In this document: positions 51,101-64,000 of the stretch, piece after piece
Layout: each line of letters opens with the position of its first letter
Position numbering within the stretch: the stretch's first letter is position 1
DNA from: Obrimoposthia wandeli
Lineage: Eukaryota
Direction of reading: 5' to 3'
Assembly (NCBI GenBank): GCA_977020255.1
Contig: CDROCS010001561.1
Coordinates: forward strand, 62,001 to 126,000
Length of the DNA stretch: 64,000 bases
The notes under the pieces: generated by a model
What the model was told of the DNA's origin: nothing
Database searches by the model: none
What the model saw: the letters and a program-made list of their open reading frames with translations, nothing else
Made by a program: the position numbers and the translations under genes

Positions 51101-54100
51101 TATCATTTAGTTTTCTATTGTGGCTAAGCATGACAATAGAAATGAGAATGGAATAATTTTTAATTGTTGAGAAAACCCTTCTATCAAGAAAAAAGATATT
51201 GCTTCACGTTTTCATTTCAAGCAGAAAACATGTAGTGATTTTCTTTTTCAACAGTTCAGCGGTGTACGTTTATCATATATGCTCACAAACTGGTTAGTAC
51301 TACATAATTAAACATTGCACAAGAATCCTTACTCGCCCAATCAGTTACATTTGACAACAAACGTATAAGTGAGCACCAATCTTTACAATTGGACAATTTA
51401 CTCTTAATATATTATTCAATATATGCAAAGAAAAATTCGATGTAGCCAAAATTCCTTATAACCGAAATCTATTGTAATTTTATTTTAAATGTAAAATTTT
51501 CATGTTTACGCATCTCAGATTGGTTCAAATTATAATTTTCTGATTCTTCACTGTTCAATGTGTAACAATGAGCAAGAACAAAAAATACGAGTGTATATGA
51601 GTAAGTAGGTATGTGGTCTCTAAGTCCCTCTATGGTCCCTTAAGTATCTTATTTTCCCGGTTATATATGCTATATTTTTCCTATATGTTCTTCAGTGTGT
51701 TCTTCAATTCTTTAGGACTGTATATTTGGTCTGATCTTGGTCAGACATTTGAGGGTGAACCTATAGGGGTCAAAAAATATATTTATACTTTTTAATAGGA
51801 ATTGAAATGCACTTGGTTTCACCTTCATAAAACCTTCAAAAATTATTACATATGTCTAAAACCTTCAAAATTTTAATTTTTCTACTTTCAAAAGTTTTAT
51901 TTGATAAGATTTGGTCTTGAAGGTCAACTTTCAAGGGTACAAAACTTTCAAATATTATTACAATAGTATAAAACAGTTTTTTTCTACTTTTTGAAGGCCA
52001 AATGCACTTGGTCTGAATCTGATTAGACCTCCGAAAATCAATATAAAAGGGTACACAACATTCTTTTTTTTAATTTAAAAAAAAAATAATTATAAAACAA
52101 TTTTAAAAAAATAATTAAATTTTCCACAAAATATTATAAAATTAAAAAAATAGCCTTCAAATTTAAAATGTTTTACATTCCTTGTACTTTTTTTTTTTTC
52201 ATACGTTATTTATGTTTTTTTTAATTTTAACTTCGTACAAAACTTTCTGTTGTAAAATCTTTTTGTTCTAAAATCTTTTGTAAAAACATTTTGTTGGTAA
52301 ATCTTTTTGTTGTAAAATTTTTTTTCAAATACTTTTTGTTAAATCTTTGTAAAATACATTTTGTTATAAAATCTTTTGTTAAAACTTTTTTTTGTAAAAA
52401 CCTTTTCTTATAAAAACTTTTTAAATCCTTATTATTCATTGTATACGAAAATTACACAATAAAGACAAGAACATTTTCTAAAACTAAATATTTGACATAA
52501 GAACAATAAAAATGTGTTTACTAAAATCAGTCAGGATGCAAATAATGTCCATATGCAACTGACTCGTTCTTGCTAATCCATTTTTTCTTGTTTTCGTAGG
52601 CATTTAATGCGATCTTGGAAGAGACTATGGTAAACAGCTGATGATTGAGGGACTGGAACCGGCGTATTGGATTCGCTGGCTTTCTCCAGTATTGTAGACC
52701 TTCATATGTGTTTCGTGCTTTATATTGATCTGCTTGATGCTCACTCTCTTACCTTTCATGGATTCTGAACTCTTCTCTGCCAGCATGCTATATGTTTTAG
52801 CGTATAGATATATACATTCGCTAAAAATCCTAACCCCTTCACTTTCATCCTTAAACTTACCTATAGCAGTTTTCACTCTAGTATATAGTGGATGAGTTTT
52901 TTTGGAACTTTGACGTATTTAATAATCCATTTGCTATCATAGCCGGTAATAGTTGACCGAGGACATCGATATTTTGACAGTTTAAGAAGAAACTGTCAGT
53001 GTCACCAGCCAGTACTCGGATATCTCGGATAAATAATACCGTAACTAAATCGTCGTCTATCTCAATCGATTTCCTAAATTTAACCTTGCTAGTATAAGTC
53101 ACTAATCTTGATCCCTAACTCGGTCATCAGCACCCATAGCTCCATGACACAAGAAACAAGTTGCAGCCAAACGAAAACTACTTTTTTGTGTCCGTGTCAG
53201 TGGATTCATTCTCGCCACTACATGTCATTTATACCATGGCAAAAAAGTGAACATAGCAAAATTTTCTATCTGAGTTAAAAAGTGAATAACACAATCAGGT
53301 CCGGTTAAACTGTGATTGCGTTGCCTTTAGGGCTGAACAGAAAATTCCCGCAGCAGTTGGAAGGAGTTTTGTGCATATTGATGATGCAGAGGTAAAATTG
53401 ACTCAAAGTCAAGTCGGTGAATTAGAGACCATATCTACCTACTTAAATGCACTTAAATCAAACTGAGTGCATAACTGATCATTGGATCACTCTGGATGAC
53501 GTGACGCTGTTGTTACCCATCTGTGAGGATGTAGCATTGGATGTGTGTTGATTGGTGTGTATTGTATTGTTTCTGTTGCCATGTGGCAAAATTATTATTC
53601 ATATACAATAATCATTAAATTGATTATTGATTGATTAATGAAAATCTGAATTTAAAATGTTTCAAATACAAACCATTTGTTATTCTGATTTTAGTGACTG
53701 AATTAATTGTGGAAAGTAAACCTACCACCATTTCAGGATCCTGATGGAGAAGAGCGTAGACCTCAACAAGTGTCTTAATCTACAGTGTGTGCGCATCAGC
53801 GAAAGTCCCACCTCCGAGACTAGCCACCGGGTTCTGTTGCTCCGCTGCACCACCAGCTTCAGTTCGCTCAACAAAGACAGCCTCGCCGTTCTTCTCAATG
53901 TGAGTGGACATCAAGTACCAAAGGGTCATCACGGTATCTGAAATCTTCTGCACTATTTGTAGTACAAAAATAATTGTTGACATGAAGATGTGACTAATTT
54001 CTACTCGAATATTTTTCTTTAATTCGTTTAAATCAATAATATCACGTTTAGAATTTTTAGTATTTAATAAAATTAAAATAACTTTGTGATAAATGAGGTA

Positions 54101-60911: not shown

Positions 60912-61668
60912 TCATATGAAAACTTTGTCAATGAATTTATAAAAGTTTATAGAAAGTTTATTTTGCTTTTCGAATGTAGGCAAACCAATAAGTTTCATTT
61001 GACTAGGATCGTACCAAAATATTTTCAAATATAGAATAAAATGTGAAACACGATAACAATGCTCAAATATTTCATTCAGTTTTTGAACTTTGAGAATCGC
61101 ATACAAAAGACATAATGAATCATAGTTTTGTACGTTTACAACTGATTTTATTCGAGATAATGCAAGAGAAATAGATATATAACTACTACCACTCAGATAC
61201 ATTACATCAAAATATTTTGTTAAAGTAAAATGTATTTGTAATATGCGCAACACTCGCCATCCACTACTCAATTCACTGTAGTTGGCAATTTTCTGGTCTA
61301 ACGTTTGAGATATGTCTGCCAAACTATCATCATTATACTCAATAGCTTTATCAAAAGATACCATTGTTTCATTTCGCCATCATCTTTTGTAAATAAGAAA
61401 AGCGCTCCATATTGTAATTTAAATCATTCCTTACTCCAAAACCAACCTGACGTATGTATTTAGAAGGCATATTAGTGCTGGATATATTTGTATGCTTAAG
61501 TGATGGCTTACCAATCGGAGCATATAAACACATTTTTCTTTTAAAATAACATAAATGATTCTTATGTAGCTCATAAAATTTTTCATAATTATCAATTGTA
61601 CATGTATTACAATTAGGACATACATAATAAATATTACCATTATGTCTAAGTCTATAATATGGCTCCAT
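60912..61668 (-). mobile_element. Maverick/Polinton (adintovirus-type) PolB N-terminal region, frameshifted
   Basis: SGWRVLRILQIHF..KY...LSGSSYI...KSVVNVQNYDSLCLLYAI matches SGW...GSSYI-x-L-P...AIINV-x-N-x-D-x-x-C-F-x-W/Y-x-I; upstream CxxC and QVGFG segment. Confidence 0.8.
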
Positions 61669-62535
61669 GATAATATTACAATTGTTATGAGATAAATTTA
61701 AACAGTAAAATGGATAAAGTTTTCATAAAATAAAAGGAGCCGACTGTTCTGATAGATATTGTGGTGTTATGTGTGATAATGTAAACTGTTGTTTCGCTGT
61801 TGATGAAATCAGTATATGATTAGCGATGGAGATAGATCCGATAGATGGAAGTTTCATTATTTGAGCCATCTGAATATATACATATAAAATTATAATAACA
61901 ATCTATTTTTGTTAATCATGATTAACAACATCAATTAGAAAGGAATTGTTTTACAAGATGTTTCTCATCTAGAGTTGACATGGAAACCTAAACAGCATAT
62001 AATCAAAACTACGGATTATACTATTATGATGATCAAGACTAGTATATGTAAAATTATGGGGTGCAAGACACCATTGTTATTTATAACAACACCATTGAAG
62101 TTTAGTATTGATAAAATTCAATCTATTACAATAGTTAAAAATTTTAGAAAATCAATAAATTTACATAAGCTATCATGTAAAGTAGCATGTATGTGTTATA
62201 AATGTTTCTAATAAAGGAGAAGGCACAAAATTCAATTCTATTTGATCTTGATTTGGATAACAATTCAAGCTGCAATAATTCAATTTGTTTAATATTTCAA
62301 TGTTATAATTTGGATAATATTCAATATAGATCTAAAAATAAGTAAAAGCAAAATTATAAATATATTCTTAAATAGTAGTTTAATAATAATAATTTCCGTG
62401 TTATACTTTGTAGAAATTGTCTGCACCAATAAAGCTGCAATAGCAATCATCATTATCCTCATCGAATAAGAACATCGAAATAAAAATCAATGAGTGAGTT
62501 TGTGTGTCAATGATAGTTTGCCAAAGGGAAGTGAT

Positions 62536-62799
62536 AAATCCCCGGCTACACACATACACACACACGCAGCCGGGGATTTTTTCCGCCTGTCCGGATGATA
62601 GGACACTACACACACCGGCCGACTGGGATGACCGAGAAGGATGATGCAGAAGGAAGGTGGAAGAGAGAGGCCGCTGCTACTGGGCGGTAAATCTTTGGAG
62701 GTCAAAACCGCTTTACTTTTTTGTCAGACTTATCTCTGACATTTTTGCCATCTCCCTGACGAGGCCAAGGCAGGCCGAAACGGGTTTATCCCGTCAGAG
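62536..62799. other. GC-rich multi-hairpin island
   Basis: Perfect 12-bp stem aaatccccggct/agccggggattt (62536-62547, 62568-62579) around a CA-repeat loop; tgtcaga/tctgaca; cggg-tttat-cccg; ctgacg/cgtcag. Confidence 0.7.
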
Positions 62800-62825
62800 G
62801 TTGATTAAAATAAATACCTCCCTGA

Positions 62826-63014
62826 TTGTGGGCATTTCAGAATGTCAATTTAAATTGGCATAAATTAATTAATTTCAAAGCCCAACATATGTACGAACCA
62901 GAATTATTTCCAGGTTTTCGATTGAATAAGTTTAACCCATTATGTGTAAATAATTTCTCTATTGGAAAGATTATCATTTTAGATATCAAATCATTGAATT
63001 ACAAACATCAATAA
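62826..63014 (+). pseudogene. TBP (TATA-binding protein)-like fragment inside the Maverick-like region
   Basis: MYEPELFPGFRLNKFNPLCVNNFSIGKIIILDIKSL aligns with the TBP repeat SYEPELFPGLIYRM-x-x-P-x-x-x-x-x-IF-x-SGKVVLTGAK. Confidence 0.75.
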
Positions 63015-63129
63015 AAATCAATAATAAAATATATTGAAAAATGTATGATTGGTTGAAGTTGAATATATATAAACGTAATATAAAAAAAAAATTCATTTCT
63101 CAAAATGGAATACAAAAACTCATTTGTAT

Positions 63130-63845
63130 GTTTTAATTACAGAATGAATACATTAAAAACAGTTGGACTTTTACCTTTTCACTACCAGTATCTATAAGTG
63201 TTGCCAAATTCAACTACAAGCTTTCTGATATTGTAATATCAGATGTAGATGATTTGAACAAAATTTTGAGAAACATGAATATTAAGTATACATCGGAGAA
63301 ACCCTTCTTGTTTATAAAATGGTTTTTCAACCGTTTTGGAAAGAAGATAGACTTTGAAGATGGTCAAGAACGGTTGATTGAAATATCAATACAAGGATTC
63401 AAAAATAATGAAGAAGCCCAAATCAGTTCAATCTGGAAAGTAAATTCTGCTCACCAATGTTTTTTAATATATTTTCTATGACTTGTTCTTATGTTTTTCT
63501 TTACATTTTAACAAAATCTTTAAATCATCGATATTTTTTATTTAATTTAGAATACTATACAACAAGAAGAAACAATATTATTTAATATATGTATAATTGT
63601 GATAGAATCGAAAAACAATATATTTTTCAAGAAAAATCCACGTGATCAAACCATTATTAATTTTGTTGCTAGATAGGCTTATCCTCATAATAAACACTTT
63701 ATTGTTGATTCATTTAATGAAGTTACAAATAAACCACATGGTTATTTCTTTATTGATTTTACACAGGAATGCAATGATGATTTACAAGTATCTACAGATT
63801 TAATTAATTCAATTGTTTATACTGTATATAAACAAATGTCTTAAA
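63130..63845 (+). pseudogene. Maverick A32/FtsK-like packaging ATPase, decayed
   Basis: IFFKKNPRDQTIINFVAR*AYPHNKHFIVDSFNEVTNKPHGYFFIDFTQE matches the Polinton ATPase C-terminus (F-K-N-P-R-D...L-A-R-Q-x-Y-P...A-T-x-K-P-Y-G-Y-L-x-I-D). Premature TAG at 63674; Walker A region degraded. Confidence 0.85.
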
Positions 63846-63859
63846 AAGGTAAATCAAAA

Positions 63860-64000
63860 ATGACTTTTAAAAAGGTTGTTGTTCCACATGAAAAAAGAGA
63901 ATTTAAGAGATTGATTTCCAATATTTCGTTTCAAAGAAAATCCAATCCAGATATTAATATATTGTTAAAGTCGCCATACAATCGTATAATGCGAATTTTA
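63860..64000 (+). CDS. Start of an ORF following the ATPase (MTFKKVVVPHE...), runs off the window
   Basis: ATG at 63860, open to the window end; position and K-K-x-V-x-V-P start recall the ORF that often follows Maverick ATPases. Confidence 0.35.
   Translation, partial: MTFKKVVVPHEKREFKRLISNISFQRKSNPDINILLKSPYNRIMRIL

Follow-up and report, generated by a model that had tools for sequence, protein, structure and literature searches.

Anatomy of the locus

Near its 3' end, the window (i.e., the whole 64,000-nt stretch of Obrimoposthia wandeli DNA analysed here) holds a broken, LTR-split fossil of a 144-codon, two-lobe TATA-binding protein (TBP)-like gene that starts at 61918. The copy of the element in which this gene lies is an internal fragment, and the Maverick core genes present here are pieces of the protein-primed DNA polymerase (pPolB) and of the packaging ATPase only (Table 1). 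The initial annotation had drawn attention to a frame with YEPELFPG and FSIGKIII at 62826-63014 of the forward strand, and such a 62-codon, stop-to-stop frame is indeed present. Comparison with other copies showed, however, that the frame is a chimera: only 62888-63014 is TBP-like, whereas its first part (62826-62887) is the 3' terminus of an LTR-like insert of 694 bp. That is, the window aligns with other copies at 61918-62193 and then again from 62888, and since the insert splits the aligned copy in this way, the gene starts at 61918, had both lobes (codons 1-92 lie upstream of the insert), and is dead here, carrying stops at 61936 and 63012 in addition to the insert. The view that about half a repeat is visible has therefore to be given up. 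The same is true for the packaging ATPase reported ~120 bp downstream, because the adjoining open reading frame (63105-63463) has a predicted T7 gp2.5-like fold and the ATPase remnant lies ~620 bp off. The window fragment by itself matches Pfam PF00352 at E 3.3e-4 and 20.9 bits, below the 22.9 cut-off.

Table 1. Features of the element copy in the window (positions are those of the window).
Feature	Position	Strand	Remarks
Maverick protein-primed DNA polymerase (pPolB), N-terminal fragment	60939..61719	-	tblastn; ~codons 42-343 of the 1221-aa reference frame; frameshifted; points away from the TBP-like gene
Canonical TATA box TATAAAA	61883..61889	+	35 bp 5' of the TBP-like start codon
TBP-like gene, 5' part, codons 1-92 (N-lobe and start of C-lobe)	61918..62193	+	in-frame stop 61936-61938; 251/275 bases match an open copy
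694-bp insert, likely solo LTR	62194..62887	.	TG...CA ends; 4-bp target duplication TATG at 62190-62193 / 62888-62891; dispersed repeat
TBP-like gene, 3' part (C-lobe stirrup, last strands, last helix)	62888..63050	+	premature stop 63012-63014; the part behind the initial annotation
TATAAACG box	63068..63075	+	37 bp 5' of the SSB-like start codon; overlaps a TATATATA run
Companion gene, ~122 aa, likely single-stranded DNA-binding protein	63105..63463	+	frameshifted here; predicted OB fold like T7 gp2.5 / ASFV CP312R
Packaging ATPase remnant, codons 154-221 only	63632..63844	+	last third; 5' part deleted; a whole copy matches Pox_A32
TATAAACA box	63827..63834	+	within the last ATPase codons; 33 bp 5' of the next start codon
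Small basic gene, start (putative core protein)	63860..64000	+	no Pfam match; continues ~110 bp beyond the window, where the element copy ends

As a dispersed repeat, the insert gave 75 matches from 40 scored candidates, and it is likely a solo LTR because two of its copies on contig C75, in the same orientation and ~12 kb apart, flank aspartic-protease and integrase-like frames. Another locus of the genome (L002/L170; G000:C2494, ~142500-142900) has the same insert-to-gene junction with no 5' half nearby; this second copy is only 83% identical and, therefore, the LTR-split element was duplicated long ago. Other Maverick remains in the area are a C-terminal pPolB piece from a different fragment at 52542-53114 of the window and a copy of another Maverick lineage ~9 kb beyond the window end (L021, L022).

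The TBP-like gene is linked to Maverick elements

Searches of the O. wandeli genome with the peptide and with PF00352 returned at least 150 matches each, and a 23-base pattern allowing up to one mismatch returned 217 vs. none for its reversed control, at least one of the 217 being a host TRF-like gene. Among the matches of the peptide and PF00352 searches, we examined 40 element-type loci, and at 34 of these an ATPase, pPolB, integrase or capsid gene lies no more than 1.5 kb from the TBP-like gene (hereafter, vTBP). The other six comprise one locus with the protease, three tandem arrays of fragments, and two loci beside other accessory frames. When loci were picked by the ATPase instead, vTBP was present at 30/30, most of them members of one young lineage. 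The proposed assignment to a Maverick/Polinton-like element is thus borne out, and copies cut off from Maverick genes are not the pattern among the loci examined. The copies do not always flank the ATPase; the latter is within 1.5 kb at 28 of the 40 loci and gene order varies among loci, so vTBP is linked to the element and not to the ATPase. Relatives of vTBP are also encoded by 77 metagenome loci, and among those of at least 3 kb a core Maverick gene was found in 26/32 and some element gene in 30/32.

The gene order of a near-complete copy is pPolB (in reverse), vTBP, the companion gene, ATPase, the basic gene, integrase, putative minor capsid, pX-like, putative major capsid and exonuclease-like; the genes without a Pfam match bear presumed names, based on position and general likeness. 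Pfam matches of the Maverick genes were to Pox_A32 and rve, with Peptidase_C5 at E 0.002 and PF03175 in lineage G; the pPolB proteins of lineages G and B are 42-58% identical. The 412-aa putative major capsid frame has no Pfam or PDB sequence match, and its alignment with a PF21738 capsid, albeit full-length, is weak (324 columns, 22%, E 0.016, probability 2.8). No long inverted repeat was seen in four (partial) metagenome contigs.

Several of the loci have features of their own. One Maverick lineage (L180-L209) has more than 100 near-identical ATPase frames, indicating recent expansion, and carries an intron-bearing vTBP, and at L017, L018 and L020 (G000:C1417, C4120) pieces of the vTBP gene and promoter form tandem arrays with a period of ~650 bp. 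Accessory frames in vTBP lineages (L056, L058, L061) resemble, by their motifs, a BIR-domain protein and a dual-specificity phosphatase, and one metagenome element encodes a ubiquitin-conjugating enzyme (PF00179; L086:225-722). The genome also has a second Polinton-like family (L259-L263, L267-L268; G000:C2441, C1559, C725), whose capsid is of the PF21738 type and whose integrase is fused to a phospholipase-A2-like domain; its core genes have no vTBP next to them. Finally, a 3.8-kb contig in a Bacteroidota-labelled bin (L210) encodes vTBP and a Maverick ATPase and likely represents a binning contaminant.

Predicted fold and conserved residues

An open 144-aa copy matched PF00352 in two stretches at E 2e-18 (66.4 bits vs. 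the 22.9 cut-off), and its predicted model (pLDDT 95.5) aligned over 144 residues with human TBP 164-336 (Z 14.1, rmsd 2.3 Å), the next unrelated fold scoring Z 6.7. With both a significant profile match and a fold match in hand, we regard it as virtually certain that vTBP is an element-borne TATA-binding protein. The N-lobe of the short-form model has no helix, and its spans measure 36 and 21 residues in short vTBP vs. 48 and 34 in host TBP and 45-48 and 29-33 in long-form relatives.

Conservation was counted over 59 aligned proteins of the vTBP family, whose members are 144-171 aa long. The YEPELFPG motif, previously put forward as a TBP hallmark, does mark a TBP, but its G, to which it owes its host-like look, is a minority state (A in 56/59 family members). 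In the stirrup, E94 is found in 55 of the 59 proteins (D in the other four) and E96 in all; F39, F98 and F114 are each invariant (59/59). The first intercalating position of the N-lobe lacks a phenylalanine in either register, i.e., three of the four intercalating phenylalanines are kept; in TRF2, a missing intercalating phenylalanine goes with loss of TATA binding. Six further positions, which correspond through the host alignment to DNA-facing positions of TBP, are altered relative to host TBP, where they read V, V, T, N, I/V and L: N6 (58/59), R45 (56/59), M47 (59/59), S69 (59/59), R102 (58/59) and N112 (59/59). The altered face is also present in 10/10 long-form relatives, with S69 replaced by T in two. 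Judging from these alignments, the DNA face of vTBP is near-invariant and mostly polar in the short as well as the long forms.

In TBP, the stirrup glutamates are contacted by TFIIB and the basic patch of helix H2 is bound by TFIIA, TAF1, Brf1/2 and Mot1, according to PMC7221094; the same source gives stirrup residue conservation of ~40% at one position among viral TBPs, and the majority of these are accompanied by a virus-encoded TFIIB. The conserved residues suggest that the stirrup of vTBP likely contacts host TFIIB.

Origin, selection and splicing

The host genome has its own TBP genes with 47-48-nt introns, together with several paralogues. Two host TBP genes are arranged head to head, ~1 kb apart (G000:C238:871800-874000; L032, L033), and three more divergent paralogues map to C60, C1092 (with an intronless core) and C968; there are also several TFIIB/BRF-like loci (L172-L179; 12 matches to PF00382). 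Far from near-identity, vTBP shares 30/122 residues (~25%) with host TBP. In a 64-row, midpoint-rooted tree, a 49-row group with all Maverick-linked proteins (and with genomic context not known for 17 of its rows) was separated at 100/100 from the cellular, archaeal-like and giant-virus-like TBPs, and short-form vTBP was nested within this group at 100/99; the sole giant-virus-like TBP in the tree (L062) grouped on the cellular side. A clade uniting the vTBP of this genome with host genes, including TBP/TRF, was rejected (p-AU 1.4e-54; 34 of the 64 rows, LG+G4). Accordingly, of the two origins suggested at the outset ("captured or virus-type"), the virus-type one is upheld and a recent acquisition from this host is not.

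Between lineages A and B (four and six open copies), dN/dS was 0.17 for both vTBP and the companion gene vs. 0.19 for the ATPase, and closely related metagenome pairs gave 0.06-0.45; we used between-lineage values since those within lineages (0.27-1.87) are noisy and biased by the choice of open frames. vTBP is a long-standing part of a Maverick clade and is under purifying selection. A scan of viral contigs with the vTBP profile gave a single match, a giant-virus-like canonical TBP, and a protein atlas search returned only generic TBP clusters for vTBP and nothing usable for the SSB-like gene described below.

In several lineages of the genome and in the metagenome locus L111, one and the same vTBP codon is the site of a 38-40-nt GT-AG interruption, which is absent from lineages A, B and G. 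As a candidate intron, it fits transcription by Pol II followed by splicing.

The companion gene

The gene that most commonly neighbours vTBP, often directly adjoining it, encodes a protein whose predicted model (pLDDT 94) resembles single-stranded DNA-binding (SSB) proteins, i.e., T7 gp2.5 (Z 7.1, below the Z 8 guide line; rmsd 3.0, 104 aligned), Enc34 SSB (Z 6.9) and ASFV CP312R (Z 6.7). Because these are the best matches of the model, the companion is likely a single-stranded DNA-binding or replication protein. A role as a transcription partner of vTBP was considered and dropped, given that the fold matches ssDNA-binding proteins.

A TATAAAC box precedes packaging and capsid genes

Upstream sequences of several gene classes of the elements share a (T/C)ATAAAC(A/G) box. 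Counted between 90 and 15 bases 5' of the start codon in de-duplicated metagenome loci, the box precedes 46/63 packaging, capsid and related genes vs. 1/52 vTBP genes, with 0.1-1.4 occurrences in shuffles. By gene, it was found before 16/18 ATPase, 6/6 basic, 8/9 capsid, 4/5 protease and 9/12 exonuclease-like genes, and was weak before minor capsid (2/7), pX-like (1/6) and integrase (2/9) genes. Its distance from the start codon is mostly 32-50 bases, with some cases of 57-84 for capsid and protease. The vTBP genes have instead a canonical TATA in 27/52 cases (12 in shuffles) and a TCA(C/T/G)T motif in 30/52 (6 in shuffles). For the companion gene, the count is 3/15, with the start codon uncertain and an intron possibly preceding it; the SSB-like gene of the window's lineage is also preceded by the box. 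An SSB is expected to be an early gene.

At 24 of 28 ATPase ends, exact TATAAAC lies in a Tyr-Lys codon pair, for which codon use predicts ~47% per pair (of the remaining four, two are His-Lys, one is a fragment and one was wrongly chosen by the script), and 8/9 boxes in the gene preceding the capsid gene lie in a different frame. These patterns of codon and frame indicate that the box is held at the DNA level. The box was first spotted by eye in loci that were later counted, and only lineage G (two copies) was fetched afterwards; over 10 kb of this lineage, nine boxes lie on the coding strand and one on the opposite strand.

Where the DNA fetched for an element contained no vTBP (nine viral contigs and the second family of this genome, in contigs of 4-16 kb or 20-30 kb of own-genome sequence), the box was present before 1/38 genes, and the ATPase genes of these elements have the box in 0/7 and canonical TATA in 7/7 cases. 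This set consists of two distant lineages on partial contigs and, therefore, provides a contrast between clades and not independent losses, so that Fisher p-values overstate it. Our searches yielded no vTBP-less Mavericks from the same virion lineage: none came up when viral contigs were scanned with the ATPase and capsid alignments, the single locus from the genome-contig scan bears vTBP, and own-genome searches returned vTBP-bearing lineages or a distant capsid type.

A proposed late-gene switch and alternative explanations

We infer that vTBP directs the transcription of its element, for which the promoter-like motif provides backing, and that a working vTBP is likely the late-gene switch of the element for its packaging and capsid genes. 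That is, the vTBP gene itself would be transcribed by host TBP/TFIID from an ordinary TATA box and the initiator-like TCA(C/T/G)T motif; the polar face of the protein would then bind the TATAAAC box 30-50 bp 5' of the ATPase, basic core, capsid, protease and exonuclease-like genes; and the retained acidic stirrup would recruit host TFIIB and, with it, Pol II. vTBP would also escape host control because the loss of H1 and H2 from the N-lobe removes the surface gripped by regulators (TFIIA, TAF1, Brf, Mot1/BTAF1). We consider the whole chain, an early viral TBP that likely reads the TATAAAC box and recruits host TFIIB, to be moderately probable from the sequence comparisons. Counting against it are the rarity of the box before minor capsid, pX-like and integrase genes, its occurrence before the SSB-like gene of the window's lineage, and the missing N-lobe phenylalanine. 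As for an animal Maverick lineage with a two-stage programme run by one 144-residue protein, the smallest TBP-type factor, which lacks host control surfaces, reads TATAAAC and uses host TFIIB, we see the case for and against as evenly balanced.

Alternatively, and this is the main rival, the box might be a weak TATA read by host TBP, perhaps only after replication raises the copy number, with vTBP having another job (e.g., at termini or on replication intermediates). TATAAAC differs from the TATA consensus at a single base, and TATAAACG was still 27% active in Arabidopsis protoplasts (PMC10005294), so host TBP can use the box; in addition, a C(-25) TATA variant was crystallised with wild-type TBP (1qn3, by its title), and the direct vicinity of the SSB-like gene to vTBP at many loci would suit a replication role. 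Nonetheless, we find this explanation unlikely, since an invariant acidic TFIIB stirrup would be needless for replication, the C at position 7 is kept across frames and synonymous sites, and the elements without vTBP have a canonical TATA before the ATPase in every case counted.

More doubtful is the hypothesis that vTBP reads the box with an element-encoded partner, as in herpesvirus vTBPs, and not with host TFIIB alone. The herpes mimic requires several viral partners (10.1101/2025.08.25.672222), and several small ORFs of the elements without a Pfam match could supply one. The 16 element frames scanned, however, gave no TFIIB-like match, the commonest neighbour of vTBP is SSB-like, and both TFIIB-contact glutamates are kept, as opposed to most viral TBPs (the ~40% at one position cited above from PMC7221094).

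A little more doubtful again is a decoy or repressor that soaks up host TFIIB or occupies TATA boxes, damping host or early viral transcription; the kept TFIIB stirrup, together with the loss of one phenylalanine and both N-lobe helices, is compatible with such a role, but a pure TFIIB sponge needs no six invariant DNA-face residues, and the matching box before packaging and capsid genes would be left unexplained. Finally, it has a negligible probability that vTBP is a processed pseudogene, or a host TBP picked up recently and kept as a passenger. The broken window copy and the intronless lineages A, B and G might recall one, but the dN/dS of 0.17 and the split in the 64-row tree with the AU test refute it, and the ~25% identity to host TBP and the relatives in Mavericks on many metagenome contigs speak against it as well.

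Relation to known systems

The elements studied here share with Mavericks, Polintons and adintoviruses pPolB, ATPase, an rve integrase, an adenovirus-type protease, putative capsids and many decayed copies (PMC8502044 and PMC8097293), and differ from them by vTBP, the SSB-like and exonuclease-like genes and, in some lineages, the vTBP intron; intact vertebrate Maverick elements are described as intronless. A TBP-like gene in a Polinton-like element has a precedent in the MELD viruses with adintovirus-like PolB, for which Starrett et al. 2021 (PMC8502044) list a gene "similar to TATA binding proteins". This gene appears as an abbreviation in the legend of Figure 5 only, in a section on non-animal datasets, and our comparison is by the legend label alone; the searched text of that article contains no TBP analysis, structure or promoter, and one supplementary file gave no match. 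Term searches for TBP found no mention in PMC11131425, PMC8097293 and 10.64898/2026.06.19.733378, and in PMC10675990 they returned TATA-binding proteins only for elements of putative mirusvirus origin. Within the Polinton, Maverick and adintovirus literature searched, which included few subscription journals, we found no study of such a gene or box.

The closest parallel in function may be the herpesvirus TBP mimics (KSHV ORF24 and its beta/gammaherpesvirus relatives, with TATT late promoters), which likewise represent a TBP fold in a nuclear DNA virus (10.1101/2025.08.25.672222). ORF24 and vTBP both have a polar, asparagine-rich DNA face with N-x-N in the first strand (the pair being essential in ORF24), and both systems have a non-canonical TATA-like box, which in herpesviruses is before late genes. 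By analogy, the vTBP system may work like these mimics, with a box that is specific to a class of genes. The two also differ: ORF24 is large and multi-domain, acts in a six-factor complex, has four phenylalanines and is without the TFIIB-binding acidic residues, whereas vTBP is a bare 144-aa saddle with the TFIIB-contact acidic residues kept, and the herpes proteins gave weak fold matches to the vTBP model (E 3e-3 or worse).

With cellular TBP, TRF/TBPL and archaeal TBP (PF00352), vTBP has in common the two-lobe saddle, the stirrup glutamates and three of the four phenylalanines; unlike cellular TBP, it is ~29 residues shorter, has no N-lobe helices (in the model), has the altered face, sits on a separate long branch and is borne by a mobile element. 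Giant-virus TBP-like proteins are also virus-encoded and have also lost the N-lobe regulatory signature, but most have their own TFIIB and drifted stirrup residues (PMC7221094), as opposed to the host-like stirrup of vTBP and the absence of a TFIIB-like gene among the 16 element frames.

In conclusion, how animal Mavericks time their capsid genes, or whether they have a viral cycle, becomes testable via a small protein and an 8-bp motif. If the proposed mechanism is true, vTBP and its box would give RNA polymerase II a minimal and orthogonal pair of promoter and factor, and would provide evidence of a regulated early/late viral cycle in these "transposons". Further, the vTBP series, in which the long forms have N-lobe helices and the short ones do not, would then reveal how far a TBP can be trimmed and re-specified while its contact with TFIIB is kept.
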